A stretch of DNA of 64,000 nt. It comes from a virus. The notes below the pieces were generated by a model. The model did not search any database. It was not told where the DNA came from and worked only from the letters and a program-made list of their open reading frames with translations. Below, piece by piece: positions 3,056-26,946 of this stretch. The stretch is from the IMG/VR virus record IMGVR_UViG_3300045988_167582; one strand, written 5' to 3'. Positions within the stretch are counted from its first letter, which is position 1. Each line of letters opens with the position of its first letter. Made by a program: the position numbers and the translations under genes.

Positions 3056-3349
3056 GTGATTACCAAGGAAAATCTGATTTCGATTGTATCGCGTGATACG
3101 GGATACAGTTTTGGTATGGTTCGCACCATTGTCGAAAGCACGGTGAAAAACATCACGAAGATGGTATCCAGAGGACATAAGGTACAGTTCTCTGGGTTTG
3201 GGACTTTCGAGCCTAAGCGCAGAGCCGCAAGAACGGGTAGAAACCCGCACACGAATGAGCCGGTGCATATTCCCGAAAGGGTTTTGCCGGTGTTTAAGCC
3301 GAGCAAGGATTTCAAAGAGTCCTTGTCTGGCTTATCTGACAAAAAGTAA
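3056..3349 (+). CDS. hup: HU/IHF-family histone-like DNA-binding protein
   Basis: GTG start after agaggagg; GFGTFEPKRRAARTGRNPHTNEPVHIPERVLPVFKPSK is the canonical HU arm. Confidence 0.9.
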   Translation: MITKENLISIVSRDTGYSFGMVRTIVESTVKNITKMVSRGHKVQFSGFGTFEPKRRAARTGRNPHTNEPVHIPERVLPVFKPSKDFKESLSGLSDKK

Positions 3350-3636
3350 AAAGTATATCGGTGCTACGAAGCCCAGTACATTCTAAGGAACGGAAATACA
3401 TTTAGGTCGAAGCTTTTTGATAACAGCATAGAGAATAAATGTTAGCAGCAGTAGTTAAATGGAGTTAGATGAACAGCCGAATACATAGGGAATCCTGCAA
3501 AATTGCAGGGCGCGGGGACTGCGAAAGTGTTCAAGCGGTAGGAAATGCTGCCACCGCGAGGCGGTTTTGATTTGAAGTGCATCCTCCGGAAGCAGGAGAT
3601 GGCTATTTGTAAATAGCCGGTAAAGCTTCCTCGCCT

Positions 3637-3710
3637 GCGGGTGTAGTTTAGTGGTAAAACACCAGATTTCCAATCTGGTTTTCGGGGTTCAATTCCCCGT
3701 GCCCGCTCCA
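3637..3710 (+). tRNA. tRNA-Gly (anticodon TCC), CCA encoded
   Basis: Hand-folded cloverleaf: acceptor gcgggtg/tgcccgc, D stem gttt/aaac, anticodon arm ccaga-tttccaa-tctgg, T arm cgggg-ttcaatt-ccccg. Confidence 0.9.
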
Positions 3711-3735
3711 AATTTTATACAAGGTGGTAGAGAGT

Positions 3736-4179
3736 ATGAGAGCAGTTGGTATTATTCGTAGAGTGGACGACCTCGGGCGCATTGTAATTCCAAAAGAAGT
3801 GCGGCGTTCTCTTCGCATCAGGGAGGGAGACCCGATGGAACTGTTTATCGAGGACGGCGGTGTGGTTTTTCGCAAATATAATGCTCTCGAAGAGGATATG
3901 TTCGACACCATACAAAAAGCAATGAAAGCCGGAGGTCGTAGCTACGCATTGTACGATAGGGATATTAAAAGAGAAAGTTCTCGTGGCTCTGGTTATCCGC
4001 GCAACGTTCCTGATGAGTGGTTCGATAAGCGCGGGGAGTTTACCTATTTAGGTAATGCTGTTTACACCATTTATCGCTATGATGATGTATGGGGCTATAT
4101 TTGCACCGATAGGACAAACGATGATTACATCAGAGGAGTCATATCGATGGCAATCAGTTCTCTTGTAGATGACGCATAA
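3736..4179 (+). CDS. AbrB/SpoVT-family transcriptional regulator
   Basis: N-terminus VGIIRRVDDLGRIVIPKEVRRSLRIREGDPMELF matches the swapped-hairpin AbrB domain. Confidence 0.8.
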   Translation: MRAVGIIRRVDDLGRIVIPKEVRRSLRIREGDPMELFIEDGGVVFRKYNALEEDMFDTIQKAMKAGGRSYALYDRDIKRESSRGSGYPRNVPDEWFDKRGEFTYLGNAVYTIYRYDDVWGYICTDRTNDDYIRGVISMAISSLVDDA

Positions 4180-7306: not shown

Positions 7307-8240
7307 GAATATCAAAATCACAGATGAGAGTCTTAATGAAGTACGCAAGGCTTTTGAGGAAGCATTGTCCACGGGAAAGTTCTCCGACGGGAAAATCACT
7401 TTCACAAAAACTCTCGGCATCGTCAATCGAAAGGCTACCATTTTCTTCACTGAGCTTGCTTGGCTCAAGATGCAGACTCTTATACGAGAGTTCGATAAAG
7501 AGGTTGCTTGGCACGGTATCGCCAAGCGCGGAGAAGACGCTTCTAAGGATGAGTATTACATAACGGATATTCTGGTGTATCCGCAGGAAGTGACAGGAGC
7601 AACGGTGAGCACCGACCAAGAAAAATACCAGATGTGGCTTATGAGCCACGATGATGAGGTTTTCAATAACATTCGGATGCAGGGACATTCTCATGTAAAT
7701 ATGGATGTCACTCCGAGTAGTGTGGACACATCGCTCTATGACCGGATTCTTGAGCAACTTGACGACGATATGTTCTACATCTTCATGATTTGGAATAAGC
7801 GCAAAGAAAAGACCATCAAGATTTACGACCTTGCTAAGAATATTTTTTTCGATACTTCGGATGTCACAGTTGAAGTCCTTGAAGATGGAACCGGTATCGA
7901 AAAATTTCTCAATGACGCGAAGGACGCGGTAAAGGACAAGCCTACCACACCGACATCGACATATCAAAGCCCCTATCGTAGTTCTTATGGGTATGGCGGA
8001 TATTATGGCGGATACGGCAGTTCCTACGGAGGCTCTGCAGAAGAGAAAGAGCCAAAAAAGACCGAGTCGCCCAAAGAAACAGCGAGTTCTCAGAAAAAAC
8101 GAAAGGGAAAGCGCAAAGGGAAACGCAAAGGTAAACACGGCGGGGTCAACAATACCTGTGATGAGAGTAAGCAAGTGACTCTTTGGGATGGGTATGATTA
8201 TGACGATATGGATGACCCGTTCTATGCAAGAGGTTATTAA
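7299..8240 (+). CDS. JAB/JAMM (MPN+) metalloprotease-domain protein with a low-complexity tail
   Basis: GHSHVNMDVTPSSVD fits HxHx7Sx2D exactly, with an upstream E (EVAWHG). The C-terminal tail contains SSYGYGGYYGGYGSSYGGS and KKRKGKRKGKRKGK. Confidence 0.8.
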   Translation: MSKNIKITDESLNEVRKAFEEALSTGKFSDGKITFTKTLGIVNRKATIFFTELAWLKMQTLIREFDKEVAWHGIAKRGEDASKDEYYITDILVYPQEVTGATVSTDQEKYQMWLMSHDDEVFNNIRMQGHSHVNMDVTPSSVDTSLYDRILEQLDDDMFYIFMIWNKRKEKTIKIYDLAKNIFFDTSDVTVEVLEDGTGIEKFLNDAKDAVKDKPTTPTSTYQSPYRSSYGYGGYYGGYGSSYGGSAEEKEPKKTESPKETASSQKKRKGKRKGKRKGKHGGVNNTCDESKQVTLWDGYDYDDMDDPFYARGY

Positions 8241-8256
8241 CAGGAGGTGATTTTCA

Positions 8257-8817
8257 ATGACAAGGCAGGAGTTTCTTGACGATGTTTACGATTTCAGAGA
8301 GCTGATGGATTTTTGTTATGATAATGACTGTGGGATTTGCGACGACATCTACGATGATGAGTCGAAGGATGAATATATCAATGAACATCTTTCGGATATG
8401 GCAGATAACGCAGATGACTGGCAAAGTCTCTATCGTACTTTGGATTATATCCCGACCGGGTATGATTACTATCGTTTAGATGATTACGACGATTTCAACG
8501 GTTTGGACGATGACGACTTCGATGACTACAAAAACGATGTGCTCGAGTGGATGGATGATAATGAATACTGGGACGAGGACGAAGATGACGAGGAAGAGTA
8601 TTTCCCTCCGGAAGAAGAGTATAGCGAAGAGGAAGACGACGAAGAGTCATGTGAAGAAGATATGCAGCCTGTCGATGAGCTTTTCAGCTTATGCAGTGAG
8701 CAGCTCAGAGTAATCGATGCAAAAGAAAAAGCCGAAGAGCAGAGGTGCAATGAAGAATTTCTTGCTTTTACAGCGGAAATCGGCGTGGTAGTAAACGAGG
8801 GAGGCAAAGCAGTATGA
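8257..8817 (+). CDS. extremely acidic hypothetical protein
   Basis: caggagg RBS; long D/E runs (DDYDDFNGLDDDDFDDY, WDEDEDDEEEYFPPEEEYSEEEDDEE). Confidence 0.7.
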   Translation: MTRQEFLDDVYDFRELMDFCYDNDCGICDDIYDDESKDEYINEHLSDMADNADDWQSLYRTLDYIPTGYDYYRLDDYDDFNGLDDDDFDDYKNDVLEWMDDNEYWDEDEDDEEEYFPPEEEYSEEEDDEESCEEDMQPVDELFSLCSEQLRVIDAKEKAEEQRCNEEFLAFTAEIGVVVNEGGKAV

Positions 8818-9488
8818 TGGATTTAAGCAAATCTTATGATTTTTTTCAGCCTGAAAAGGACGACGCCCGTATCCATATTGTTGGGTGCGGCTCTGTTGGT
8901 TCCACCATTGCGGAAAACTTGGCTCGCTGTGGTGTAACAAAGATGACCCTGTGGGATTTTGATAAGGTTGAAGCCCACAATATTGTCAATCAGATGTTCC
9001 GACAGCAGGATGTCGGTAAGTTAAAGGTCGAAGCTCTTAAAGATATTCTGAGCGACATCAACCCCGACATCATCGATGATGTCGAACTCAAACCTGACGG
9101 CTGGAAAGGAAGGCTTATGTCCGGCTACATCTTCCTCTGTGTGGACAGTATTGAGCTACGCAGAGAAATTGTCGAGAAGCATATGGATAGTCCATATGTA
9201 AAAGCGGTATTTGATTTTCGTACACTTCTTGAAAGTGCGCAGCACTACGCCGCTGACTGGTCGGATTATAAAATGAAAAAGGACTTATTGAAGTCCATGC
9301 AGTTCTCGCACGAAGAAGCCGCCGTGGAAACTCCAGTATCGGCTTGCGGGGTCACGCTCGGAGTTGCGACGACAGTGCGTGCGGTTTGCGCTATTGGTGT
9401 TGCGAACTTTATCAGGTTCTCCAAGGGTCAGGGCATTAAGAAGTTTATGAACATTGACCTGAGTACATTCATGCTTGACGCTTTTTAA
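8814..9488 (+). CDS. E1-like ThiF/MoeB-fold (Rossmann) protein
   Basis: IHIVGCGSVGSTIAENLARCGV ... LWDFDKVEAHNIVNQMF resembles the GxGxxG plus DxDxV..N..RQ nucleotide-binding core of ThiF/E1 adenylyltransferases. Confidence 0.7.
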   Translation: MMDLSKSYDFFQPEKDDARIHIVGCGSVGSTIAENLARCGVTKMTLWDFDKVEAHNIVNQMFRQQDVGKLKVEALKDILSDINPDIIDDVELKPDGWKGRLMSGYIFLCVDSIELRREIVEKHMDSPYVKAVFDFRTLLESAQHYAADWSDYKMKKDLLKSMQFSHEEAAVETPVSACGVTLGVATTVRAVCAIGVANFIRFSKGQGIKKFMNIDLSTFMLDAF

Positions 9489-9504
9489 CAGATAAACGAA
9501 CTTA

Positions 9505-9758
9505 GACTGTAATGAAATGTGTTTCTTTGAAACAGCTTTTCGCTGTCAGCAAAAGTAACAACTTGAGAGGAAAATGGTAGCCCCAAGGAGGTGTCTTCTT
9601 CGAAGGTGGGGACTGTACACTCCGGAAATCACGAGGACATTAACCATCAGATGTAAGAATATTCCATTGTCCCGCAATAAGTCATCAAATAAGAAAGCCA
9701 TCAGTGCCGGTTCCCAGACTCGAATCGACGCCCGCTTCTATCTATAATGATTACAGTC
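9505..9758 (+). ncRNA. retron-like structured RNA element, copy A (directly upstream of the RT)
   Basis: Ends pair (gactgtaat 9505-9513 with attacagtc 9750-9758); G at 9514; conserved hairpin cttttcGCTGTCAGCaaaag at 9536-9555; G at 9749 precedes the 3' strand. Confidence 0.6.
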
Positions 9759-9779
9759 AAACATAAAGGAGGTATCCGC

Positions 9780-10922
9780 GTGGTTTATATCACAGTAAAG
9801 CAACCACCAATGTATAGACAAATGACATTGGAAGAGCTTCTTTTTGGAACGGAAATTAAACCTTCCATAGTAAACAACAACATAACAAACACGCATACAT
9901 ATGTTGTTGACAGAGTAAACGATAAATATCGCAAGCGAATCGATGTCGATAAGATGATTGAAAAGCTTGCACAATTCAATCAGCAAACAGAATCGCTCAG
10001 AGTGCATCAGCCACGCACAGATTTATATTATACATTCCATATTCCTAAGAAAAGCGGCGGGCTTCGGCGTATCGATGCTCCGAACGATGAGCTGAAGAAC
10101 GCACTTAGAAATTTGAAAGAGATATTCGAGAATGATTTCGGATGCCTGTATCACACAAGTGCGTTTGCATATATAAAAGGACGCGGAACAATTCCTTCGG
10201 TTAAACGACATCAGGCAAATGAGTCCAAGTGGTTTGGAAAATATGACCTTTCTAACTTCTTTGGAAGTACAACGCCTGACTTCATTATGAAGATGTTTTC
10301 AATGATTTTCCCTTTCTCGGAAATCGTTAAGACGAGTGATGGTAAGGCAGAACTCAGTAAAGCACTCGACCTTGCCTTTTTGAACGGAGGTCTTCCGCAG
10401 GGAACGCCGCTTTCGCCGACGCTGACAAACATTATGATGATTCCGATTGACCATAAGTTATCCAATGGACTGCGTAACTTCAATAATCAGTCCTTTGTTT
10501 ACACAAGGTACGCGGATGATTTTCTTGTATCCTCAAAATACGAGTTTAAGTTTATGGATGTAGAAAAATTCATCGTTGATGTGTTGGCAGAGTTTGGTGC
10601 CCCGTTCACAATCAAGACAGCCAAAACCAGATACGGCTCGTCTGCCGGTTCCAATTGGAACCTCGGAGTTATGCTGAATAAGGATAACAACATCACAATC
10701 GGTCATAAAAAGAAAAGACAGTTTCAAGCAATGCTCAGTTCATATGTCCTTGATAAACAGAACGGGCATCCGTGGGATAGAACCGATATCCAGACCTTAG
10801 AGGGTTATCGGAATTATTATCGCATGGTAGAGGGAGAGACTATCGATAAAATTGTCGAGCACATTGGAGAGAAGTATCATATTGATATAGTTGCTTCCCT
10901 TCATGACGATTTACGAACATAA
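9780..10922 (+). CDS. reverse transcriptase, retron/group-II-like RVT_1 type, stand-alone
   Basis: YYTFHIPKKSGGLRRIDAPNDELK, KYDLSNFFGS, GLPQGTPLSPTLTN, YTRYADDFLVSS. GTG at 9780 lies 7 nt after aggagg; alternative starts are ATG 9747 (inside the RNA stem) and ATG 9810. Confidence 0.9.
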   Translation: MVYITVKQPPMYRQMTLEELLFGTEIKPSIVNNNITNTHTYVVDRVNDKYRKRIDVDKMIEKLAQFNQQTESLRVHQPRTDLYYTFHIPKKSGGLRRIDAPNDELKNALRNLKEIFENDFGCLYHTSAFAYIKGRGTIPSVKRHQANESKWFGKYDLSNFFGSTTPDFIMKMFSMIFPFSEIVKTSDGKAELSKALDLAFLNGGLPQGTPLSPTLTNIMMIPIDHKLSNGLRNFNNQSFVYTRYADDFLVSSKYEFKFMDVEKFIVDVLAEFGAPFTIKTAKTRYGSSAGSNWNLGVMLNKDNNITIGHKKKRQFQAMLSSYVLDKQNGHPWDRTDIQTLEGYRNYYRMVEGETIDKIVEHIGEKYHIDIVASLHDDLRT

Positions 10923-10928
10923 CAAAGA

Positions 10929-11194
10929 TTTCTGTAATGAATATCCATTTTTATGGGGCTTTTTGCTGTAAGCGGAAGTGACGCGATGGTAAGGGAAAAG
11001 ACGCAGGGAACTGGCACGCAAATCAATCCCTCCTCGCAGAGATGACCAGCGAACAAATCAATACACAAGAAATGAGCTGTTGCTACACAACAGTCCAATC
11101 CGTCAGCAAGCAACAAATACACCTGCACCTCGCTTCCGAGGCGCCTGAGCCGCACCGGTATCCCGCCTGCTGCTGACATTGTAGATTACAGAAA
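10929..11194 (+). ncRNA. retron-like structured RNA element, copy B
   Basis: tttctgtaat 10929-10938 pairs with attacagaaa 11185-11194; G at 10939; hairpin ctttttGCTGTAAGCggaag at 10959-10978; G at 11184. Confidence 0.6.
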
Positions 11195-11204
11195 CAACTA
11201 AAAT

Positions 11205-11472
11205 GGATAAGCTGATAATGCAATTGCTTTGCCTATGCAAACGCGCTCTTTGCTGTCAGTGAGAGTAACAACTTGAGAAGAAAATAGAGGATGAAGAAGA
11301 CGACAGAATAAAATTAAAGAATATATCAAGTAATCCAAATAACTTGGTGTAGACCCTGAAGACATTGTCCCACAACAACACACTGAACTATCCTCTGGAT
11401 TTCCTCATCTGGAACACCGGTACCTGCATCCCAGTTTTGTGCAGCTGTTCCCTTGTAGATTATCACTTATCC
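11205..11472 (+). ncRNA. retron-like structured RNA element, copy C
   Basis: ggataag(c)tgataat 11205-11219 pairs with attatcacttatcc 11459-11472; G at 11220; hairpin ctctttGCTGTCAGTgagag at 11246-11265. About 40 nt after the hairpin is near-identical to copy A. Confidence 0.6.
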
Positions 11473-11914
11473 AACAAAAGAATTGTTCCTTTTAAGGAGC
11501 TCCCGAAAATCTATTGTAACACAATAGGTTTTCGAGAATTCTACAACCGCCGAGGTTGTAAAACGCTATATTGCTCTGATGCCAGAGCTTTATAAACCCT
11601 CCCGAAAGCGCACCGGCAAACTATGAATTGGCAATCGACTCATAGGTAAGAAACGACAGGTAATGAGCCGACCTATCTGGATTGCGTCCAGACAACGCAA
11701 GTTGGTCGAAATTCGGGAGATATATTTTTAATGCTTTAAGACGAGGTGAAAAATATTCGCACGGATATACTTGAAAGAAAGACGGAAATCCTCAAATCCT
11801 CAATTGGATAAATGAGAAAAAGACCAAAGCTTTTATAAGTCGTCAATTATTGTGTCCAAATTGTCACGCGGTACAAAATCTCATGATGATTCGAGGCGAA
11901 TTTATAATAAGAAT

Positions 11915-11987
11915 GTGGGCTAAACGAGAACATAGTTAATAATGTGCCCATTAGGGCGTGTAAGTTCAAGTCTCATTGCCCACACCA
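11915..11987 (+). other. degenerate tRNA-like sequence (possible tRNA pseudogene)
   Basis: 73 nt ending in acca; acceptor gtgggc/gcccac and a TTCAAGT T-loop are present, but I cannot fold a proper D arm or 7-nt anticodon loop. Confidence 0.3.
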
Positions 11988-11990
11988 CTT

Positions 11991-12065
11991 GGCGCTATCG
12001 TCTAATCGGTCAGGACATCGCTCCTTCAAGGCGGGAATATGGGTTCAACCCCGTTAGCGTCACCA
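11991..12065 (+). tRNA. tRNA-Glu (anticodon TTC), CCA encoded, non-canonical details
   Basis: Acceptor ggcgcta/tagcgtc, D loop with GG, anticodon loop ccttcaa. By my fold, position 33 is C and the T-loop has 6 nt. Confidence 0.6.
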
Positions 12066-12070
12066 TTTAT

Positions 12071-12147
12071 GTGGGTATAGCTCAACTGGTAGAGCACCTC
12101 TCTTTTAATGAGGGAGTCCGGCGTTCGAGGTCGCCGTACCCACACCA
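12071..12147 (+). tRNA. tRNA-Lys (anticodon TTT), CCA encoded
   Basis: Acceptor gtgggta/tacccac, D arm gctc-aactggta-gagc, anticodon loop cttttaa. T stem cggcg/cgccg has an 8-nt loop by my fold. Confidence 0.75.
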
Positions 12148-15496: not shown

Positions 15497-16030
15497 ATGA
15501 AAACTCTCATTGTGATTGATGTGCAAAATGATTTTATCACAGGAGCACTTGGCTCGAAAGAGGCTGTAAATATTTTGCCGAACATCAAGAAGAAAATCGA
15601 AGCGTATATTGACGCCGGTGATGAAGTAATTTTCACTCGTGATACGCATGGCGAAGCTTACCTTGACACCAATGAAGGAAAACATCTTCCGATTCCTCAC
15701 TGCATCAAAGGAACAGATGGCTGGCAGATTGTCAAGGAAATCGACCGTCCTGAATGTGAGCATATTGATAAGTTCACATTCGGATATCCCGATTGGGATA
15801 TCTCTGCTTCTGATGATGGAAGCTTTTCAGACCGTAATTTTAGTGAAATTGAAATAATCGGTGTCTGCACCGATATTTGCGTGATTTCTAATGCCCTGAT
15901 TCTCAAGGCGCTTTTTCCGGAAATTGATATTACCGTTGATGCGAGTTGCTGTGCAGGAGTCACTCCCGAGACTCACAAGGCGGCGCTCACCGCTATGAAA
16001 TCATGTCAAATCAATATTGTTGGAGAGTGA
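15497..16030 (+). CDS. pncA: isochorismatase-fold cysteine hydrolase, nicotinamidase (PncA)-like
   Basis: LIVIDVQNDF at the N-terminus and IIGVCTDICV (catalytic Cys context) are typical of nicotinamidases. Confidence 0.8.
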   Translation: MKTLIVIDVQNDFITGALGSKEAVNILPNIKKKIEAYIDAGDEVIFTRDTHGEAYLDTNEGKHLPIPHCIKGTDGWQIVKEIDRPECEHIDKFTFGYPDWDISASDDGSFSDRNFSEIEIIGVCTDICVISNALILKALFPEIDITVDASCCAGVTPETHKAALTAMKSCQINIVGE

Positions 16031-16034
16031 TTAA

Positions 16035-16838
16035 GTGTTAAAAGTTAATTGCAAACCGGTTGAATTAAACAAATTTCCGGACGGTACTTTTTTGATTAAG
16101 GAGAAACCGTCCGGCGATAGGGCTCTTATCTCGTGGAAGTTTGAAAATAATGAGGAGCTTGTTGCACTGATTTATATTACTCATCATCTGCGTGCCCACG
16201 GCGTTAAGACAATTCATTTGTTTATGCCGTATATCCCCAATGCACGGCAGGACAGGGTAAAAACAGATGAGGATGTATTTACACTCAAATATTTTGCTTG
16301 GGTTGTTAATTCTTTGGAGTTTGATAAGGTCATGGTGGTAGACCCCCATTCATCTGTATCTGAGGCTTTGATTGAGCGTATAAAGATTATATCTCCCGCC
16401 GATTTAATCAACATCGCTTACAATCGTGTCTGTGAGGAATGCTCGTGTGGAGATAATGATGTCTTGATGTTCTATCCTGACGAAGGCGCGATGAAACGAT
16501 ATTCCGGAATGATTTCGGCGCCCTATGCTTTCGGCATTAAAGAGCGCGACTGGGCTACTGGAAAGATTAAAGGATTATCTGTTTTTGAGGGTGAGAGCTC
16601 CGTCAAAGGCAAGAACATCCTGATTGTTGATGACATCAGTAGTCGAGGCGGAACCTTCTACCACAGCGCCAAAAAACTTAAAGAACTCGGCGCTGAGAAG
16701 GTATTTCTTTATGTAACGCACTGTGAAAACACAATCCTCGAAGGCGAGGTTTTATCCAGTGGGCTGATTGAGAAGGTTTATACCACGGACAGCCTGCTTA
16801 CGATAAAACACGAAAAGATTGAGGTGATGGAGCTGTGA
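16035..16838 (+). CDS. ribose-phosphate pyrophosphokinase (Prs)-family protein; possibly an Adps-type enzyme
   Basis: GTG start; NILIVDDISSRGGTFYHSAKKLKELGA is the PRPP-synthetase/PRTase ribose-phosphate loop. Confidence 0.8.
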   Translation: MLKVNCKPVELNKFPDGTFLIKEKPSGDRALISWKFENNEELVALIYITHHLRAHGVKTIHLFMPYIPNARQDRVKTDEDVFTLKYFAWVVNSLEFDKVMVVDPHSSVSEALIERIKIISPADLINIAYNRVCEECSCGDNDVLMFYPDEGAMKRYSGMISAPYAFGIKERDWATGKIKGLSVFEGESSVKGKNILIVDDISSRGGTFYHSAKKLKELGAEKVFLYVTHCENTILEGEVLSSGLIEKVYTTDSLLTIKHEKIEVMEL

Positions 16839-18310
16839 TTAAAATGAATCCAATGCTTTTGATTGACTTTTATAAAGCCGTTCACGCCGAAATGCTACCG
16901 AAGCACATGACAAAATCGGTATCCTATTATACCCCTCGTATGAGTCGAGTGAATCGCTGGGATAAGGTCGTCATGTTCGGTTTGCAGGGATTTATTAAGA
17001 CATATCTCATCGATTACTTCAATGAGGAGTTCTTTGCGAAACCTTTTAAGACGGTGATGGCTGATTATCAGCGAGTAATGGACGCGTCTCTTGGAAAGGG
17101 CATTTATGGTATGAAAAAAATCGAAAATCTCCATAAGCTTGGCTATCTTCCGATTGAGATTGTCGCCATTCCAGAGGGCACCCGTGTTCCGATGCATTGC
17201 CCAATGTTTGGAATCACAAATACACTCCCTGATTTTGCTTGGCTTCCCCAGTCTCTCGAAAGCCTCATCTCCGCTGAGAGCTGGCATCCTATGCTGGCTG
17301 CTACCGTAGGATACACCTACAGAGAAATCGTAAATCATTATTACGGTTTAACTTGTGATGACAACATTCCTCGAGCAAAGGCGCTTGGCGCGTTTGATTT
17401 TCGAGGCGAAGAAAGCTTGGAGTCTGCCATTAAAGCCGGAGCAGGGTGGTGTATGTCATTCCTGAATACAGCAACAGTCCCTGTTATTCCGTATTTGGAG
17501 AGTGTATATAATTGTGACTGCACTAAGGAGCTTGTGGCTTTTGGCAGCCCGAGTACAGAGCACTCTGTTATGTGCTCGAACTATGCGGTTGATGGTGATG
17601 AAATCACACTACTCAGACGGCTACTCACGGAGATTTATCCCAATACCAGTTTCTCCGCCGTGCTTGACTCATATGATTACTGGAATGTAATTGACAATAT
17701 TCTTCCGCAAATCAAGGATGAGATTCTTGCGCACAATGGATGTATGTTAATGCGCGGTGATTCCGGTGACTGCGTAGAGGTTGTGACAAAGACGGTTTTC
17801 AAGCTCTGGGGAGAATTCGGCGGTACAATTAACAGTAAGGGGTACAAGGTACTTGACCCCCATGTAAAGGCTATCTACGGAGACAGCATTACCGTTCAGC
17901 GCTGTGAGGAGATTTACAAGATTTTGATGGGGCACGGATTTGCCTGCTCCAATGTCGCTCTTGGCGTCGGTTCTTTCTCTTTTCAGTGTATTGAAGAAGA
18001 CGGAATATTAAAGCCATTTACGAGAGACACATTTAGTTCCTGTATTAAGGCAACCTACTGCGAAATTGACGGGAAGCCTCTCCCAATTTTCAAAAACCCC
18101 AAAGACGGTGGATTCAAAAAGAGTCAAAAGGGGTGCTGTGTGGTTTACAAAGACAACGATAACGGACTCTGTTATAAGGACGAGTTTACTTGGGACGAAG
18201 CATATAGTGATTCACGAAATATGCTTGTACCCGTGTTTAAGGACGGCGTAATGACAAAGGAGTTTACTCTTGAAGAGGTCAGAGCCAATCTGCATGGAGG
18301 TAATTTCTAA
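16835..18310 (+). CDS. nicotinamide phosphoribosyltransferase (NAMPT/NadV)-family protein; possibly Namat-type
   Basis: N-terminal LLIDFYKAVH and the overall length and pattern fit the NAMPT family; 4-nt overlap with the Prs-like gene. Confidence 0.8.
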   Translation: MIKMNPMLLIDFYKAVHAEMLPKHMTKSVSYYTPRMSRVNRWDKVVMFGLQGFIKTYLIDYFNEEFFAKPFKTVMADYQRVMDASLGKGIYGMKKIENLHKLGYLPIEIVAIPEGTRVPMHCPMFGITNTLPDFAWLPQSLESLISAESWHPMLAATVGYTYREIVNHYYGLTCDDNIPRAKALGAFDFRGEESLESAIKAGAGWCMSFLNTATVPVIPYLESVYNCDCTKELVAFGSPSTEHSVMCSNYAVDGDEITLLRRLLTEIYPNTSFSAVLDSYDYWNVIDNILPQIKDEILAHNGCMLMRGDSGDCVEVVTKTVFKLWGEFGGTINSKGYKVLDPHVKAIYGDSITVQRCEEIYKILMGHGFACSNVALGVGSFSFQCIEEDGILKPFTRDTFSSCIKATYCEIDGKPLPIFKNPKDGGFKKSQKGCCVVYKDNDNGLCYKDEFTWDEAYSDSRNMLVPVFKDGVMTKEFTLEEVRANLHGGNF

Positions 18311-19119
18311 TGGATTACGAAGAATATATGAGAAAATTTAACGCAAAAGCGGTAAAAGACGGAGTTGTCTCATGGATTCGCCAGTGGTTTAAAACAAACG
18401 GCAATGGGTGTAATGCCGTTGTCGGTATTTCCGGCGGGAAAGACAGCTCAGTCGTTGCTGCACTGTGCGTTGAAGCGCTTGGAAAAGAAAGAGTAGTTGG
18501 TGTGTTAATGCCGAATCACGAACAGGCAGATATCGGTTCAGCGTACAAGTTGGTTGACCACCTTGGCATTATGTATACCGTTGTCAATATCGGCGGTGCT
18601 GTTGACTATTTATCCAGTCACGTTGATTCAAGCATTTTAAGAACAGCGAAATTATTTAGTTCGCAGGTTAGCTTAAAAATGTCCGTCCAATCAAAAACAA
18701 ATCTGCCTTGCCGAATCCGCATGGCTACGCTTTACGCGGTTTCACAGAGTGTCAACGGCAGGGTTGCCAACACTTGCAATCTCAGCGAGGATTGGGTCGG
18801 GTACTCAACGCGATACGGAGATTCCGTTGGTGATTTCAGTCCTCTGTCAATGTTAACAACGGATGAGGTGATTGCAATCGGCAAGGAATGTGGCATTCCG
18901 AACGAGCTTATCGAAAAAGTACCATCGGATGGGCTTTGCGGTAAAACCGATGAAGAAAATCTTGGCTTCTCCTATAGAGTTCTTAACGAATATATCAGAA
19001 CAGGGCATTGTGACGACGAACGAATCCGAGTGCTAATCGACGAAAAGCACAGCAAAAGCTTATTTAAGCTCTTGCCGATGCCGGTTTTCTTATATGAACC
19101 CATAAGAATCACGTGTTGA
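18310..19119 (+). CDS. nadE: NH3-dependent NAD+ synthetase
   Basis: PP-loop GISGGKDSSVVAAL; NadE-sized (269 aa). Confidence 0.9.
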   Translation: MDYEEYMRKFNAKAVKDGVVSWIRQWFKTNGNGCNAVVGISGGKDSSVVAALCVEALGKERVVGVLMPNHEQADIGSAYKLVDHLGIMYTVVNIGGAVDYLSSHVDSSILRTAKLFSSQVSLKMSVQSKTNLPCRIRMATLYAVSQSVNGRVANTCNLSEDWVGYSTRYGDSVGDFSPLSMLTTDEVIAIGKECGIPNELIEKVPSDGLCGKTDEENLGFSYRVLNEYIRTGHCDDERIRVLIDEKHSKSLFKLLPMPVFLYEPIRITC

Positions 19120-19131
19120 GATTTTAATAAA

Positions 19132-19290
19132 ACCCACAATGTAGATTGATTGCAAATTGAGTATTTATACATATGTGCAGTCGCTCGTCGCTGTTAGTGC
19201 GAGTATGAAATTGAAAACGGTTCTCCGGAAAAGCACAACCCATAAGGCGTTCTGCGTCCGTGCACGCCTTCTGAGTTACGGATTGTGGGT
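19132..19290 (+). ncRNA. retron-like structured RNA element, copy D (shortest)
   Basis: acccacaat 19132-19140 pairs with attgtgggt 19282-19290; G at 19141; gtagattgattgc box; hairpin ctcgtcGCTGTTAGTgcgag at 19184-19203; G at 19281. Confidence 0.55.
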
Positions 19291-19834: not shown

Positions 19835-20011
19835 ATGGTTTTTGTTCCGTATGAAAAGCTCTCAAAGAAAAAGCAGAAAGAAATTGACGCGCAGAAGCGA
19901 GGAATATGGGGCGAAATTTGCCCGATTACGAGGAAAACCAAAAACCTCACAGTATATAATCGCCAAAACGAAAAGAAAAACGCGAGGAGGGATATAAATG
20001 ACTCTTACTGA
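19835..20011 (+). CDS. small basic hypothetical protein (58 aa)
   Basis: gaggtga RBS before the ATG at 19835; K/R-rich. Confidence 0.5.
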   Translation: MVFVPYEKLSKKKQKEIDAQKRGIWGEICPITRKTKNLTVYNRQNEKKNARRDINDSY

Positions 20012-21278
20012 AAAAGTGATTGCACTTCAGGAGTTAAATGGAGCGAATGAAAAACAGAGATTTCTGAAAGAGAATGCGGATGACGCCCGGTTCACAAAGT
20101 TTCTGTATTATGCGCTAAATCCACTTCTTACATACAATCTTTCGGAGAATACGCTTCGGGATAAGCCGGATAATTCTCCGTGCAAAGGGTTTATTACCTT
20201 TACAGATATCTTTGATTGCTGTGAGCAGTTGTCCCGCTTACGAGGACTTGATGATGCGACGGTTCGTCAGGTAAAAAACTTTTTGTACAATCAAATTGAT
20301 AAGGACGCGACCCGTGAGATTTTTATTAAGCTTCTGGCGAAAACTTTGAGACTTGGAGTAACCGCAAAGACTGTTAACAAAGTGATTCCCAACTTACTTC
20401 CGGAGTGGGAAGTTCAGCAGGCGTATCCGATAGATAAGTATCCGGTCTCAAGCGGTACAGAGTTTTGGTTGACCCAAAAACTGAACGGTGTGCGTGCAAC
20501 ATTATATAATGGTCAACTTATCGCACGAAGCGGCGTTCCGTTCAAGGGTCTTGACCACATACTCAAGGAACTTCGATGGGCTGATTGCGCTCATATTGCT
20601 TTGGACGGTGAGCTTACGCTTGTAGATACGCATGGGTTAAGAGACAATGAGGCTTTCCGTGAGGCAACCGGTATTCTGAACTCGGATGATGAGCATAAAA
20701 CAGGGATTTGCTTCACAATTTTTGACGCAATTCCTTATGCAGATTTTGATAGCGCCAACCCAAAGGTTTCTTATTCTCATCGGAGAACCATTCTTAACGA
20801 GGTAGAGGAGACGGTGAGTAACTCGGAATGTGTAAGAGTGCTACCGGTGCTTTACCACGGCAAAGACCTGCGGAAAATTGATGAACTTCTTGAGCAGATG
20901 ATTCGAGAGGATAAAGAGGGCTTAATGCTCAATACCGATGTGCCGTATAAGAGAACAAGACACAAAGGCATTCTGAAAATCAAGCGGTTTTACACAATGG
21001 ATTTACCGATTACCGGAGTTGAGGAAGGAAGCGGCAGACTCACCGGTAGGTTAGGGGCTTTTGTGCTTGACTACAAAGGAAATGAAGTAAAAGTCGGTTC
21101 CGGGTTTACGGATGAACAGCGCAGAGGTTATTGGGATATGCGTAACAGCCTTATAGGTCAACTGTGTGAAGTAAAGTACAAGGAAATCTCCTATGACAAA
21201 AACACAGGGCTTGAAAGTCTCCAATTCCCCGTATTTGTACAGTTGCGAGCCGATAAGACGGAGGTAAGCTATGGCTGA
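19998..21278 (+). CDS. ATP-dependent DNA (or nucleic-acid) ligase
   Basis: Motif I TQKLNGVR (KxxG), EGLMLN, and ILKIKRF (motif V-like). Confidence 0.85.
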   Translation: MTLTEKVIALQELNGANEKQRFLKENADDARFTKFLYYALNPLLTYNLSENTLRDKPDNSPCKGFITFTDIFDCCEQLSRLRGLDDATVRQVKNFLYNQIDKDATREIFIKLLAKTLRLGVTAKTVNKVIPNLLPEWEVQQAYPIDKYPVSSGTEFWLTQKLNGVRATLYNGQLIARSGVPFKGLDHILKELRWADCAHIALDGELTLVDTHGLRDNEAFREATGILNSDDEHKTGICFTIFDAIPYADFDSANPKVSYSHRRTILNEVEETVSNSECVRVLPVLYHGKDLRKIDELLEQMIREDKEGLMLNTDVPYKRTRHKGILKIKRFYTMDLPITGVEEGSGRLTGRLGAFVLDYKGNEVKVGSGFTDEQRRGYWDMRNSLIGQLCEVKYKEISYDKNTGLESLQFPVFVQLRADKTEVSYG

Positions 21279-21609
21279 TTTTGATAGAGAACAAGCGGAG
21301 CAAGAGCTGTATGAAAGAATGCTCGCAGAGCTCAGCACCTTTCGAGATTCGCTGTTGAGGCTTTCTCCCTCAGAGATAATCAGTAACTATAACCCATACG
21401 AACTCGTTTATAAAGAAGATATACTGATGTGCTTTGAGGATGACGAGTTATGCTTAAGCGATGAAAATGTTCTGGTTTTGCTTGAAAAGGAGAACCCGCT
21501 TGACTGGCTTTACCAGTCTTGGTGTGACTCCGGCATTTCTCACATGGATATGATGCGTGAATTCATTCACGATACAGTACAGGCACAGGAGGTGTCCAAT
21601 AATGATTAA
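21271..21609 (+). CDS. hypothetical acidic protein (112 aa)
   Basis: Start overlaps the ligase stop; no motif recognised. Confidence 0.6.
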   Translation: MADFDREQAEQELYERMLAELSTFRDSLLRLSPSEIISNYNPYELVYKEDILMCFEDDELCLSDENVLVLLEKENPLDWLYQSWCDSGISHMDMMREFIHDTVQAQEVSNND

Positions 21610-22105
21610 AATCGTAGACGGCGATATTTTTAACTGTGATGCAGATGCAATTCTACACCAAGTAAATTGTCAGGGTGTTATGGGGAGCGGAGTTGCTAAG
21701 CAAGTGCGAGAAAAGTTCCCTACGGTATTCAAGTATTATAAAGCTCGTTGTGATGAGGATAAGCGTTTCAAGGAGCAGTCCGGTATCACGAAATCGAGCC
21801 TGCTCGGTTTAGCACAGGTGTGTTATAAAGATGATTACCCCGTTGGTGATATTAAGGATAAACAGGTTATTATCAATCTGTTTGCACAGGACAGATATGG
21901 TTACGACGGTAACTGCTACACTGACTATGAGGCTCTTCGTAAATGCCTAAAGACGGTCAACAAGCAGTTTTCTGGCAAAAGAGTAGCCATTCCGTATCTT
22001 ATGGCTTGCCACAGAGGCGGTGGAGACTGGGATACGGTTTATCAGATGATAGTTGAGGAATTAGCTGATTGCGATGTAACCTTATATCGATATACCGCCG
22101 GGTAA
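21602..22105 (+). CDS. macro-domain protein (ADP-ribose binding/hydrolase family)
   Basis: IVDGDIFNCDADAILHQVNCQGVMGSGVAKQVREKFP is a typical macro-domain N-terminus; ggaggtg RBS. Confidence 0.85.
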   Translation: MIKIVDGDIFNCDADAILHQVNCQGVMGSGVAKQVREKFPTVFKYYKARCDEDKRFKEQSGITKSSLLGLAQVCYKDDYPVGDIKDKQVIINLFAQDRYGYDGNCYTDYEALRKCLKTVNKQFSGKRVAIPYLMACHRGGGDWDTVYQMIVEELADCDVTLYRYTAG

Positions 22106-22514: not shown

Positions 22515-22804
22515 TGGATGAGGTTAATAACTTTTTAAAACGATTTCATCTGTCGAGCAATGTTGACGAGGTGTTCACCTGCGGTTGTTGCTATTGGTTC
22601 GCGGCAATCCTGTTTCGCAGATTTATCAGAAACGGTGCGGAAATCGTGTATTCAGTAGAAGATAATCACTTCGGCACAAAGATTAGAGGAAAGGTTTATG
22701 ACATAACCGGAGATGTTACGACTAAGTACAACTGGATTTCGTGGCTCAATTATAGTGATTCAGCTCATAAAGAAAGAATTGTTCGTGATTGCATTATGTT
22801 TTAG
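22514..22804 (+). CDS. hypothetical protein (96 aa)
   Basis: ATG overlaps the upstream stop (taATGg). Confidence 0.6.
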   Translation: MDEVNNFLKRFHLSSNVDEVFTCGCCYWFAAILFRRFIRNGAEIVYSVEDNHFGTKIRGKVYDITGDVTTKYNWISWLNYSDSAHKERIVRDCIMF

Positions 22805-22961
22805 GAGGTGAAATGTCAATGCGTGAAAGAAGTTGTGTGTCCAGTCCCGACATACTTCAGAATTGTTCATCAACTTATCAAGTACGATGATGCGATAGCG
22901 ACAAGATAAGTTCTTCACACTTTTTTCAAAATATTTTTATTGTTTCTGGGATTAAATATTA

Positions 22962-23255
22962 ACTTGTAATGTAGATTGCTATCTTGCATAGCGCTTCTCG
23001 CTGTAAGCAGAAGTATCGCATTGGTGGGAAATAGAACAGGGGATGACGACCCTGTAAGCCTCACTCAGGCGAGCTAATCGCCGTCAGTGAAGCTCAAAGA
23101 CAGACAACCAATCAAAAGAACATCCAAACGCATTGTGTAGCAACGCGAATCACCCAGCAAAACAGTCAACTAACCATATGAAACAGAGGTTCAGTTGGGC
23201 AGGTATCTATAGTGCAGCGATTCATGATGCGGCAATGTAATATAAGATTACAAGT
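22962..23255 (+). ncRNA. retron-like structured RNA element, copy E
   Basis: acttgtaat 22962-22970 pairs with attacaagt 23247-23255; G at 22971; gtagattgc box; hairpin cttctcGCTGTAAGCagaag at 22994-23013; G at 23246. Confidence 0.55.
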
Positions 23256-23449
23256 GAACGCGAAACGTTAGGGTGTGACAACAAAGCACCCAATGAAAGG
23301 TTGGGATTTTTAATGTGGTTATCTACCGCACCTAAAGAAGAAATTAAAAAGGTGGTTTATAACCGTAAATAACTTGAGTAATATACTGAATCACGGCTGC
23401 GGATGTGATGAGGTGTGTTATATTAAATAAACTTGAAGGAGTAAGATAA

Positions 23450-24406
23450 TTGACTATTTTTCTAAAAATCGTTTCTCTTTTACTTTTTGCGAGCGCATTC
23501 GCCGTCCCGGCAATTGTAAACTATGTACGACGTGAAAACTCTTATGATGACAACTATAAAAGAGTTCCCAAGAGATGGACTGTTGTTACTACATTAGTGG
23601 CAGCGGTTCTTTTTATTGTCTCTTGTGCTTTTGTCATCATTCCGACTGGGTACACAGGCGTTCGTACAACATTCGGGCAGATTGATAGCGTCACTATGCA
23701 GAACGGGTTTAATTGGAAAGTTCCGTTCGCACAGACTGTGCGAACGGTGAACAACAAGCAGCAGGATTTGCTTTTTGAAAAAGATAAGATTTGGTCTGAA
23801 ACGGAAAGCCGAACAGCAATTTATTATGAGGGCGTAACGGTTACATATCAGATTAGCGCCGAAAAATCCGCGTGGATTTATGCGAATGTTGCAAACTACA
23901 AAGAGGTGCTGGTTTCATCCAATCTGGTTGCATCTGCAATCAAGTCGAGCAGCAAGAGCCTGAGCGATACCGATGCGACAAATCGAGCCGTGGTTGAGCC
24001 TCTTACTATGCAGAACCTTCAGAAATCTCTTGATGAAAAATATGGGGAAAATGTTGTGTTCGTAAATAAAGTGACAATCAGCAACATTGATTTTGAAGAT
24101 TCTTACAATGCGGCAATCGCTGCAAAGCAGCAGGCGCAGCTCAATGCAGAGCAGCAGGCAATTGAAAATCAGCGTGCAATCGATAAAGCAGAAGCTGACG
24201 CGGAGGTAAAGTGCAGGACTGCGCAGGCAGAAGCCGATGCTAAACTCATTACAGCGCAGGCTGAGGCAGAAGCGAACACTCTTCTGGAAAAATCGCTGAC
24301 AAGTCAGATTTTACAGGAAAAGTATATTGAAAAATGGAATGGACAGATGCCCAATGTGATTGCCGGAGATGACGGTACATCCATTCTGGTTCAGCCCACT
24401 CCGTAA
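23450..24406 (+). CDS. SPFH/Band-7 (prohibitin-like) membrane protein
   Basis: TTG start after gaaggag; N-terminal TM segments, TGYTGVRTTFGQI ... NWKVPF SPFH core, and an A/E/Q-rich coiled-coil tail. Confidence 0.85.
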   Translation: MTIFLKIVSLLLFASAFAVPAIVNYVRRENSYDDNYKRVPKRWTVVTTLVAAVLFIVSCAFVIIPTGYTGVRTTFGQIDSVTMQNGFNWKVPFAQTVRTVNNKQQDLLFEKDKIWSETESRTAIYYEGVTVTYQISAEKSAWIYANVANYKEVLVSSNLVASAIKSSSKSLSDTDATNRAVVEPLTMQNLQKSLDEKYGENVVFVNKVTISNIDFEDSYNAAIAAKQQAQLNAEQQAIENQRAIDKAEADAEVKCRTAQAEADAKLITAQAEAEANTLLEKSLTSQILQEKYIEKWNGQMPNVIAGDDGTSILVQPTP

Positions 24407-24446
24407 GGTCAATAAAATAACGGCGCAGAACCGCAGACCTGCACCG

Positions 24447-24689
24447 TAATCACAATGTAGATTGATTGCTTTCAGGTTTAATACATATACAGGCAATCAC
24501 TCCTGCTGTCAGCAAGAGTATCAAGATGAGTCTTGCACTTCGGCTGGCGGACACACAATTTGCGAGCAAGCTCTAAGGAGCTTGCTCGTGTTCTTTGAAT
24601 CCCACGGATTCAAAGAACTGCCAGCCGAAGTGGCACTTATAGGTACAACAAATAAGTTCAAGGAACCTATTTGTTACAGATTGTGATTG
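24447..24689 (+). ncRNA. retron-like structured RNA element, copy F
   Basis: (t)aatcacaat 24447-24456 pairs with attgtgatt(g) 24680-24689; G at 24457; gtagattgattgc box; hairpin ctcctGCTGTCAGCaagag at 24500-24518; G at 24679. The interior has 11-13 bp helices. Confidence 0.55.
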
Positions 24690-24720
24690 AAAGATTTAAC
24701 TATGAAAGGCGGAATAAACG

Positions 24721-26946
24721 ATGAGAGTTCTCTTGTTATTAAGAGGCAGCGCTGGGTGCGGGAAATCCACATGGATTGAGCAAAACGGTCTCAAACCGTA
24801 TACCTTATCGGCAGATGACATTAGAATGATGTGTTCAAGTCCGGTCTTGAATGTTGACGGGAAAGAGGAAATCAATCAAAACAATGACACTGCTGTATGG
24901 AGTACACTCTTTAAGCTGCTCGAGCTGCGTATGCAGAATGGTGAATTTACGGTAATTGATGCTACCAATTCCAAAACGTCAGAAATGAACCGTTATAAAG
25001 AGCTTTGCTCTTCTTATAAGTACAGAATTTATTGCGTTGATTTCACTGACATTCCTATTGAAGTCACAAAGGAAAGAAATTTGCAGAGGGTCGAGATGAA
25101 ACAGGTGCCCGAGTCTGCAATTGACAAAATGTATGCTCGCTTTCAGACTCAAAAAATTCCGTCCGGTATTACAGTAATTAAGCCCGATGAACTCGAAAAA
25201 GTTTGGATGCGAAGAATCGACTTGTCCGAATACAATAAAGTCCACGTGATTGGAGATATTCACGGTTGTAACACTGCTCTCCAGACATATCTCGGTAGAG
25301 AAATTAAGGAAGATGAGTTTTACATCTTTACAGGGGACTATGTTGATAGAGGACTTGAAAATGCTGAGGTTGTGCAGTTCCTGCTCTCGATTTACGAGAA
25401 GAAAAATGTATGCCTTCTTGAAGGGAATCATGAAAGATGGCTGTGGATTTGGTCAAACGACGGAGTAAGCAAACCCAAGGAGTTTGAGTTTGTAACAAAG
25501 ACGCAGCTCGAAAATGCGCGGGTAAAGAAAAAGGATGTTCGTCGGTTATACCGTAGAATTGGGCAGTGCGCTTACTTTTCGTATGGAGAGAACGTTTATC
25601 TCGTAACTCATGCAGGCTTAAGCACTATTCCTGATAACCTGACCTTTGTTTCAACCGCGCAGATGGTTAAAGGAGTCGGAAGTTACAACGATTTTGAAGC
25701 CGTAGAAAAGGCTTTTGATAAAAACACTGCACAGAATTGCTATCAAATTCATGGGCACAGAAATACGAAACAGCTTCCAGTTAGAGCAAGCGAAAGATGT
25801 TTCAATCTCGAGGGACGAGTAGAGTTTGGCGGATGCCTTCGTTGTGTTGACTTACATCGGGACGGGACTATGGAAACTTCCGAAATTCAGAACACTGTAT
25901 TCAAGGCGCCTGATGAGATTCCGAAACCTGCAGCCGTATCTCATCAGACAGTTGGCGACGCTATTATCGCTCTCCGTCAGAACCGATATGTTCAGGAAAA
26001 GAAATACGGGAATATCTCTTCATTTAACTTCACCAAAACAGCGTTTTATGACAAGATTTGGGACGAGCAAACAACAAAAGCCCGTGGGTTATACATCAAT
26101 ATCCCCGAACAGCGCGTCGTTGCCCGTGCATACGACAAGTTTTTTAATATTAACGAACGCCCCGAAACGAAGCTCGATATGCTCCAGTACAAATTGAGTT
26201 TCCCCGCGACAGCCTATGTCAAAGAAAACGGATTTTTGGGTATCGTTTCCTATAACGATGAAGATGAATCGCTGTTCGTAACAACGAAATCTTCTCCGGA
26301 TGGGGATTTTGCCGGTTGGCTTAAAGATATGCTCTACGAGAAGTATTCCAAGGAAACACTTGAGGCGATTCGCTCTTTTTCCAGAGACAATAATGTCTCG
26401 TTTGTCTTTGAGTGCGTCGATATGAAAAACGACCCTCATATCATCGATTATGATGCAAGCAAACTGTTCTTGCTTGATATCGTATATAACGAAATGGCAT
26501 ATCGCAAGTTTAGCTTTGAGCAGCTTTGCGAATTTGCGGACAAGCATGGAATTACTCATAAGGAGAAAGCGTTCGTGCTTGAAACTTGGCAGGAATTCTT
26601 CGACTGGTACTACAAAGTTATCGATGAGGATTATAAGTACAACGGTCGAAATATCGAGGGCTTTGTTATCGAGGACTCCAACGGCTATATGGTCAAGCTG
26701 AAGCTTACCTATTATAACTTCTGGAAATTTATGCGCTCAATTTCTCACGAGGCAATTCGCAACGGGTACATTAGCGGTCGCCGCACATCGGCATTAACTA
26801 CACCGTTGGCGAATCAGTATTACAGTTGGGCTAAAACTCTCCATGATACAGAAGACCGAGATGCAGTTCCGAAGGATATTTGTACTTTAAGAAAAATGTT
26901 CTACCAGACGGATATTGGCAGACAATTTGCCGAGGAGGATACATAA
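24721..26946 (+). CDS. trifunctional Pnkp-type RNA repair enzyme (P-loop kinase, metallophosphatase, ligase/adenylyltransferase)
   Basis: LLLRGSAGCGKST (P-loop); VIGDIHGC ... TGDYVDRG ... LEGNHE (calcineurin-like); AYVKENGFLG (KxxG nucleotidyl-transfer motif I) in the C-terminal domain. Confidence 0.8.
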   Translation: MRVLLLLRGSAGCGKSTWIEQNGLKPYTLSADDIRMMCSSPVLNVDGKEEINQNNDTAVWSTLFKLLELRMQNGEFTVIDATNSKTSEMNRYKELCSSYKYRIYCVDFTDIPIEVTKERNLQRVEMKQVPESAIDKMYARFQTQKIPSGITVIKPDELEKVWMRRIDLSEYNKVHVIGDIHGCNTALQTYLGREIKEDEFYIFTGDYVDRGLENAEVVQFLLSIYEKKNVCLLEGNHERWLWIWSNDGVSKPKEFEFVTKTQLENARVKKKDVRRLYRRIGQCAYFSYGENVYLVTHAGLSTIPDNLTFVSTAQMVKGVGSYNDFEAVEKAFDKNTAQNCYQIHGHRNTKQLPVRASERCFNLEGRVEFGGCLRCVDLHRDGTMETSEIQNTVFKAPDEIPKPAAVSHQTVGDAIIALRQNRYVQEKKYGNISSFNFTKTAFYDKIWDEQTTKARGLYINIPEQRVVARAYDKFFNINERPETKLDMLQYKLSFPATAYVKENGFLGIVSYNDEDESLFVTTKSSPDGDFAGWLKDMLYEKYSKETLEAIRSFSRDNNVSFVFECVDMKNDPHIIDYDASKLFLLDIVYNEMAYRKFSFEQLCEFADKHGITHKEKAFVLETWQEFFDWYYKVIDEDYKYNGRNIEGFVIEDSNGYMVKLKLTYYNFWKFMRSISHEAIRNGYISGRRTSALTTPLANQYYSWAKTLHDTEDRDAVPKDICTLRKMFYQTDIGRQFAEEDT

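Follow-up and report, generated by a model that had tools for sequence, protein, structure and literature searches.

Dispersed retron-like RNA elements and a retron-type reverse transcriptase in a large phage

Why does a single SPFH/Band-7 gene of a large phage lie between two long gene-free intervals that resemble structured RNA? The question is raised by positions 22,962 to 24,689 of a 64,000-nucleotide stretch (the window) of the IMG/VR virus record IMGVR_UViG_3300045988_167582. An initial annotation, made from the letters alone, had placed two RNA elements, E and F, on either side of the SPFH gene and had taken both for further copies of a structured element at the reverse transcriptase (RT) locus of the same genome. 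Six covariance-model copies support that assignment, and the RT to which they are linked is of the retron type. We consider it likely that each element is an msr-msd-like template, recognized through a conserved hairpin (P3) and primed from a G near its 5′ end, so that the phage would obtain several different single-stranded DNAs (ssDNAs).

The element family and copies E and F

The covariance model spans 45 positions, the P3 hairpin plus its 3′ flank. It finds six matches in the 64 kb, all on the + strand and with E-values of 1e-11 to 2e-6, and the next-best match has E = 1.8. The family was first shown by repeat finding, alignment and a motif scan, as a hairpin at the RT locus and near a tRNA-Thr gene. 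Copy A (9505..9758) lies just 5′ of the RT gene, copy B (10929..11194) begins just 3′ of it, and copy C (11204..11473) has a closing helix (P1) of 15 bp with one bulge, formed by 11204-11219 with 11459-11473. Copy D (19132..19290), upstream of the tRNA-Thr gene, has a short payload; it belongs to the subfamily of E and F and has a 19-nt identity in common with F. Copy E occupies 22962..23255 (294 nt; model match at 22988-23032, 48.4 bits, E = 2e-11) and copy F 24447..24689 (243 nt; model match at 24494-24537, 31.2 bits, E = 2e-6). The copies, 159-294 nt long, are dispersed over 15 kb, and they, like the RT, SPFH and RNA-repair genes discussed below, are all encoded on the + strand.

The copies are built on one plan, which runs 5′ to 3′ from a P1 arm through a G, an optional variable hairpin (P2), the conserved P3, a variable region that we call the payload, and a short motif to the 3′ arm. 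In every copy P3 is followed by AGUAAC-like and purine-rich sequence. The motif before the 3′ arm resembles (U)GUAG/UACAG and has G as its last base, and the G after the 5′ arm is invariant in 15/15 aligned copies. The outer arm sequences of P1 vary between copies yet remain complementary.

The boundaries of E and F are exactly those first annotated, 22962-23255 and 24447-24689, and the complementary ends ascribed to each element do pair. In E, the 5′ arm of P1 (ACUUGUAAU, 22962..22970) pairs with the 3′ arm (AUUACAAGU, 23247..23255). The conserved G directly after the 5′ arm, at 22971, is a candidate priming or branch G. The conserved opposing G, at 23246, is the last base of the payload (23015..23246), which is U-poor, weakly structured and fast-evolving. 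P2 of E (GCUAU-CUUGC-AUAGC, 22978..22992) is placed by RNAalifold at the same position in RT-upstream copies. P3 (GCUUCUc GCU-GUA-AGC AGAAGU, 22993..23014), in which 7-8 of the nine pairs show compensatory changes and 99% of cells are paired, is the likely RT-recognition hairpin. Relative to shuffles the fold of E has moderate structure (z about -2.7 to -3.0). A promoter-like site (TTCACA-18-TATTGT, 22914..22943), a consensus match only, lies ~19 nt 5′ of E, and a terminator-like hairpin with a T run (23289..23312) lies 34 nt 3′ of it; the hairpin is not evident in the related phage L012. Upstream of the six copies there is no consistent sigma-70-like site, E being the only copy with one.

In F, the P1 arms are UAAUCACAAU (24447..24456) and AUUGUGAUUG (24680..24689), with conserved Gs directly after the former (24457) and directly before the latter (24679). 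Its P2 (UGAUUGCUU ... AGGCAAUC, 24463..24498) is predicted by folding, and an A-to-G change in the sister phage, L001, still leaves a U-G pair. P3 of F (ACUCCU GCU-GUC-AGC AAGAGU, 24499..24519) is bulge-free and has one C-A mismatch. The element is far more stable than shuffled sequence (z = -9.7 and -11.7). The payload is predicted to fold into a three-way junction (24536..24632) of three perfect helices of 11-13 bp, and the long helices that had been reported there exist, at 24536-24548/24620-24632, 24562-24573/24578-24588 and 24590-24602/24606-24618. They are not conserved: the L012 orthologue has a short and unrelated payload, and RNAalifold returns only the scaffold helices. The junction is specific to this lineage.

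Two motifs had been described as common to E and F, and both are present. The box AATGTAGATTG occurs exactly at 22968 in E and at 24454 in F, and also in copy D at 19138; as a lone 11-mer it is not above chance, with at least three matches in 28 of 100 shuffles. The GCUGUnAGC hairpin has compensated stems (CUUCU-c-GCU GUA AGC AGAAG in E, CUCCU-GCU GUC AGC AAGAG in F). In addition, AAUGUAGAUUG lies directly 3′ of the 5′ arm in both elements. The blocks without genes beside the SPFH gene measure 645 nt (22805-23449) and 314 nt (24407-24720, one less than first given). Their description as the largest of this part of the genome holds only locally, since the gene-free interval 10923-11990, at 1068 nt, is longer than either. 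The upstream block also contains a possible 25-codon micro-ORF (open reading frame) with an AGGAGG ribosome-binding site (22813-22890), between a YunG-like gene and E. A GC-rich hairpin (24420-24447) separates the stop codon of SPFH from the 5′ arm of F; it is conserved and present in L012, and has no T run on the + strand.

Covariation, linkage to the reverse transcriptase and payload drift

Covariation supports both P1 and P3. Together they are 93% paired in 15 copies drawn from four lineages of phage, versus 35-45% with a slid partner, and 14 of the 19 pairs have changed on both sides. P1 alone, with 3′ arms located by complementarity, is 91% paired, with changes on both sides in 9 of 10 pairs. 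The opposing G15 and G64 (alignment positions) are invariant in these copies. Among 105 distinct copies from related phages, P3 is 99.5% paired compared with 36-46% when slid; both sides have changed in 7 of its 9 pairs, and its core alternates between G-C and C-G and between A-U and U-A. Two P3 positions are dominated by G-U pairs, which argues that the + strand RNA is the folded molecule. Complementarity alone gives an 8-bp G-flanked helix at 61% of random anchors too, and because chance complementarity of this length is frequent, P1 was retested by motif-anchored and flank-blind searches. With the search anchored on the ..AU/G and G/AU.. motifs, 18 of 27 copies show a closing helix at p <= 0.05 when compared with shuffles. 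With the flanks left unconstrained, the longest end-to-end helix is flanked by G on both sides in 88 of 141 distinct copies, and the innermost P1 pairs covary (AAU/AUU in 63, AAC/GUU in 13 and GAU/AUC in 6). For nine RT-upstream copies RNAalifold predicts P1, P2 and P3, and no payload helix.

The elements accompany the RT across related phages. We surveyed 79 IMG/VR loci with RT relatives of 48-76% identity. These contain 172 copies, every one on the RT strand, and 72 of the loci have at least one. A copy lies just 5′ of the RT in 61 of the 79, its conserved hairpin beginning 150-420 nt before the gene, and just 3′ in 47. Two or three copies per 7-kb RT locus are typical, and element length ranges from about 160 to 560 nt (median 303 nt). 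When contigs were found by a scan for the element alone, the RT was also present in nine out of ten. For the annotation of this phage group, many large gene-free blocks can be assigned to these elements.

The RT gene encodes 380 aa (9780..10922) with a YADD active site. Its relatives align from about residue 11 of a longer ORF, and the true start is the GTG at 9780 behind the ribosome-binding site AAAGGAGG, which leaves copy A ending 21 nt upstream. The top 25 PADLOC matches are all retron RT models, the best being RT_II-A (1.9e-47 over nearly the full model), and the NCBIfam model retron_St85_RT matches with E = 4.8e-52 and 177 bits, against only 1.5e-10 for Drt2. Among solved structures the best matches are the RTs of retrons Ec83 and Ec78, and the strongest ones are all retron RTs; an AlphaFold2 model of the protein is poor (pLDDT 53). 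All relatives share the YADD, the region X H and the region Y G. We found no cultured relative: the best match is an unannotated faecal phage with 41% RT identity, and there is no useful nucleotide match. The RT has >564 IMG/VR matches and is found widely among large phages of Clostridia from the gut and rumen.

The scaffolds are held while the payloads drift. In the sister phage, whose genes are 95-96% identical to those of the window, scaffold identity is 96-100% in A, B, C, E and F, versus payload identities of 77% for A, 82% for B, 67% for C, 74.5% for E (96% for its flanking genes) and 91% for F. The few changes in the F payload fall mostly in loops and junctions. Four-fold degenerate sites of neighbouring genes differ by 6-17% and payloads by 9-33%, ~1-2.5 times as much. 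By this measure the payloads drift at about the neutral rate or somewhat faster. Hypermutation was considered and set aside, payload divergence being at or somewhat above neutral and not clearly accelerated. In L012 both copies keep their P1 arms and scaffold with unrelated payloads, that of F only about 70 nt long; the spacers are thus conserved as elements with the same closing arms, beyond any promoter. Most payloads are A- and C-rich, with 10-25% U (30% in copy L005c) versus 26.5% genome-wide; 23026-23224 in the window and 5220-5480 in L007 are examples of U-poor stretches. An antisense or guide role within the phage was also rejected, as no payload match exceeds 12-13 nt and no complementarity is found elsewhere in the window. 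In the sister phage, 328 extra nt precede E (about 3100-3430) and 81 follow it (3725-3806), and the element itself is collinear.

The bracket around the SPFH gene can be read against this background. The gene (23450..24406; 318 aa, TTG start) matches Pfam Band_7 (E = 1e-16) and PHROG 200, and has no match in the PADLOC defence-system library. The sister phage retains the gene's position between two copies, as does L012, where SPFH is 76% identical, but this does not hold for more distant homologues: at 73%, 69%, 68% and 60% identity the gene is packed between others with no adjoining element. The phage represented by L005, L024 and L025, whose RT is 76% identical, has two tandem copies 5′ of its kinase-phosphatase-RNA ligase gene, the place of F, and in L025 the SPFH gene is absent there. 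It follows that the elements are not tied to SPFH, whether they move or persist. Copies often enclose a single gene in these phages, the RT being one example and the 180-194-aa ORFs of L005 to L007 others, because the elements occupy successive intergenic gaps. A partner protein was looked for among the genes so enclosed in relatives and rejected, as they have no domain in common. Between E and its start codon, SPFH also seems to have retained a conserved promoter and ribosome-binding region of its own. Most likely, the gene is a passenger in a region where elements accumulate, and the bracket is positional. On the minus strand of L025, ~430 nt (3210-3640) between the tandem copies and the RNA-repair gene are gene-free and possibly structured, with a terminator-like hairpin at the end and no Rfam match.

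Proposed retron-like templates and the competing explanations

As defined in PMC7736814, a retron msr-msd RNA is closed by hybridizing terminal inverted repeats, has two opposing Gs, forms one to three hairpins in its msr and varies in its msd. The system described here resembles bacterial retrons of types I-A / II-A (Ec78, Ec83, St85, Ec86) in several ways. By profile and solved-structure matches its RT is of the retron group, and directly 5′ of it, in the same orientation, lies a noncoding RNA (ncRNA). That RNA is closed by terminal inverted repeats (P1), has two opposing Gs at the inner end of the closing helix, and has one or two 5′ hairpins (P2, P3) before a variable 3′ region. If the elements work as retron RNAs do, they would be transcribed from the + strand and their ends would pair into P1, the counterpart of the retron a2/a1 repeats, setting the G after the 5′ arm opposite the G before the 3′ arm. 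The RT would recognize P3 and copy the payload upstream of the 3′ arm, with the 5′ G serving as primer as it does in retrons. One RT could in this way produce a set of different single-stranded complementary DNAs (cDNAs), one per element. RT binding, cDNA synthesis and any branched linkage are steps that we infer. Our literature searches turned up no phage-encoded RT of the retron type that has several ncRNAs.

Several observations weigh against this proposal. Known retrons are bacterial and have one ncRNA per RT beside an effector gene. Here the elements are encoded by a large phage and not in a bacterial defence island, the genome has at least six ncRNA genes instead of one, some 8-14 kb from the RT, and no conserved effector-like domain was recognized next to the RT. 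The textbook msd is a long stable stem-loop. Whole-element z values for A-E are -0.9 to -3.0, with A and B at or near shuffle level, and F is the copy with long perfect helices; most payloads are not long hairpins, and their low U content excludes a fully self-complementary one. Drift at about the neutral rate or faster speaks against a sequence-specific role over long times. The 177 bits of the St85 match fall below the 235-bit cut-off, which places the RT outside that subfamily. The retron motifs are only partly kept compared with the Ec83 RT, SVKRH standing for NAXXH and NLG for VTG, each reduced to its most conserved residue, the H and the G (Mestre et al. 2020). Finally, Rfam returned no family at E <= 10 for the E/F (22800-24750) and RT-locus (9400-12000) regions. 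At gathering score Rfam finds only tRNAs and RAGATH-16 in the whole window. Rfam should include the retron msr family and large phage-associated RNAs.

In the leading alternative, the elements are functional structured RNAs but are not reverse-transcribed, such as stable ncRNAs, protein sponges or decoys, or processing or insulator modules excised from long phage transcripts, with the RT linkage reflecting common regulation or RT binding without templating. The payloads of A-E, weakly structured, U-poor and about neutral, would suit a spacer between conserved protein-binding modules, and the distance of D, E and F from the RT (8-14 kb) is in keeping with this reading. With a promoter-like site at E only, the other copies would need to be processed from read-through transcripts. 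We nevertheless regard this explanation as unlikely, given that the retron template layout is matched point for point with an RT-upstream copy in 61/79 loci, and that 172/172 copies in related loci lie on the RT strand.

The closest published parallel is UG27, an RT group described earlier (Mestre et al. 2022, PMC9226505) and revisited in the Minerva preprint, dated 24 September 2026. UG27 RTs of gut (pro)phages are accompanied by arrays of ~150-nt ncRNA units, each with a conserved AUC-N7-UANAG cDNA start motif and a UUYA stop motif and each templating a short cDNA hairpin, and the system requires two domain-less accessory proteins, sORF and bORF (bioRxiv 10.64898/2026.09.22.753630). The present system might be a divergent UG27 system, in which such an array would accompany a phage RT and two accessory proteins. 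The concept is alike: a phage-borne RT with several structurally conserved, sequence-diverse units that are gained and lost between close relatives, some of them in neighbouring intergenic regions. Two domain-less genes (5831-7306, 7290-8240) are syntenic with the RT, and the preprint admits clades whose units escape its own model (bioRxiv 10.64898/2026.09.22.753630). The details, however, point elsewhere. The RT here is retron-type, and its YADD is invariant in relatives, whereas UG27 is a class 2 UG/Abi RT with YSDD in the five tested systems. The retron model scores 5e-52 against 1.5e-10 for Drt2, and no DRT structure is among the solved-structure matches at E <= 1e-5. AUC-N7-UANAG occurs 8 and 5 times on the two strands of the window against 6.2 expected per strand, a chance frequency, and not at all on the + strand of the six elements. 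The units are about 160-560 nt long (median 303 nt), closed by a helix with opposing Gs and interspersed with genes, unlike the single tandem arrays of 135-167-nt hairpin units with a pseudoknot in UG27, and the neighbouring conserved gene here is ThiF-like. On these published features, we find membership of UG27 quite improbable.

Two other RT systems invite comparison. Like diversity-generating retroelements (DGRs), the system has a phage-borne RT and a fast-diverging block beside invariant flanks. The window has no template/variable repeat pair and the RT is not DGR-type; DGR-like mutagenesis of the payloads was likewise discarded, as A, C, G and T sites are each mismatched at 12-15%, with no adenine bias. 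In DRT2 and DRT9, too, a structured ncRNA lies directly 5′ of the RT, and it serves as a template, as it would here. Unlike those systems, the present one is phage-encoded and multi-copy, with a weak Drt2 match (1.5e-10) and no outstanding stop-free frame. We had considered a hidden frame of the DRT2 kind and rejected it, since the longest stop-free frames equal those of same-composition shuffles in either sense; a 59-codon frame in copy A is missing from its orthologue.

The elements could also act as DNA, as miniature inverted-repeat mobile elements or attC-like sites bracketing cassettes such as SPFH. Each is bounded by terminal inverted repeats that have a semi-conserved core (..YAAT / ATTR..), copies often bracket one gene (SPFH, the RT or the 180-194-aa ORFs in L005 to L007), SPFH lies between copies in one lineage and is missing in another, and insertions and deletions adjoin E in the sister phage. 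Against such mobility, the outer arms differ in every copy, no target-site duplications were seen, and no transposase or integron-type integrase lies nearby. The orthologous copies stay put between phages with proteins only 76% identical. The frequent P3 G-U pairs would be C-A mismatches on the other strand, and every copy is on the transcribed strand. We judge a DNA-level role to be highly improbable. Nor do we give much credence to E and F being gene-specific cis-regulatory leaders or trailers for SPFH and the downstream RNA-repair gene. In favour of this, E lies upstream of SPFH, the kinase-phosphatase-RNA ligase fusion gene (24721..26946; Pfam AAA_33, Metallophos, RNA_lig_T4_1) starts 31 nt beyond F, and there are terminator-like hairpins 3′ of E and within F. 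Against it, one and the same scaffold stands ahead of genes that are not related to each other (the RT, tRNA-Thr, SPFH, the RNA ligase fusion and the L030 counterpart of the DNA ligase gene), SPFH homologues elsewhere lack it, and SPFH apparently has its own conserved promoter and ribosome-binding region.

Genomic surroundings and significance

Upstream of the RT, 5831-9488 holds a ThiF-family gene and the two domain-less genes, which encode 491 and 316 aa. All three are syntenic with the RT in L005, L007-L009 and L023 and may be functionally linked to it. Downstream, the linker UAUCCAUUUU of copy B (10942-10951) is perfectly complementary to AAAAUGGAUA (11200-11209), which overlaps the 5′ arm of copy C; judged by complementarity, this could allow alternative pairing between the neighbouring copies. 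The 517 nt after copy C (11474-11990) are gene-free, fold with z = -4.5 against shuffles and have no Rfam match; in their last ~75 nt they look like a degenerate, CCA-terminated tRNA, which ARAGORN does not call. An ochre-suppressor-like tRNA (anticodon UUA) is encoded at 12071-12147 beside a tRNA-Glu, and the window has seven tRNA genes. At its start are three 45-nt tandem repeats (1-135), followed by a RAGATH-16 RNA at 153-225 (Rfam, 81 bits).

A block resembling NAD salvage (15497-19119 and 19998-22105) encodes an isochorismatase-family protein (possibly a nicotinamidase), a PRPP-synthetase-like protein, an NAMPT/NAPRT-like protein and an NAD synthase, and is followed by a DNA ligase gene and a Macro-domain gene. 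Together these genes look like a counter-defence region around the dispersed copies. From the NAD salvage and Macro genes, the DNA and RNA ligases and the tRNAs nearby, a suppressor-like one included, we speculate that the elements themselves have a counter-defence role. The ssDNAs might be decoys, surrogate antitoxins for host retron effectors, or sponges for ssDNA-sensing proteins. The full proposal, in which a retron-clade RT serves a dispersed msr-msd-like family and, during infection, provides a fast-evolving ssDNA repertoire against host immunity, is one that we offer tentatively and regard as somewhat doubtful.

Retrons are known as bacterial anti-phage systems in which a single RT goes with a single template RNA and a single effector. 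In the present case the RT type and the RNA architecture are those of retrons and the genome is that of a phage, with conserved scaffolds, freely changing payloads and counter-defence-like surroundings. If the proposal is true, this would be the first retron working for a virus, and a second, independent origin of the plan of a phage RT plus many templates, beside UG27. If the RT does copy the elements, phages would have taken retron chemistry into their own service, separately from the UG27 arrays, and the question would open of what use a virus has for a set of short DNAs. The system would then also be a natural multi-template retron, of interest to engineers of retron arrays for genome editing.

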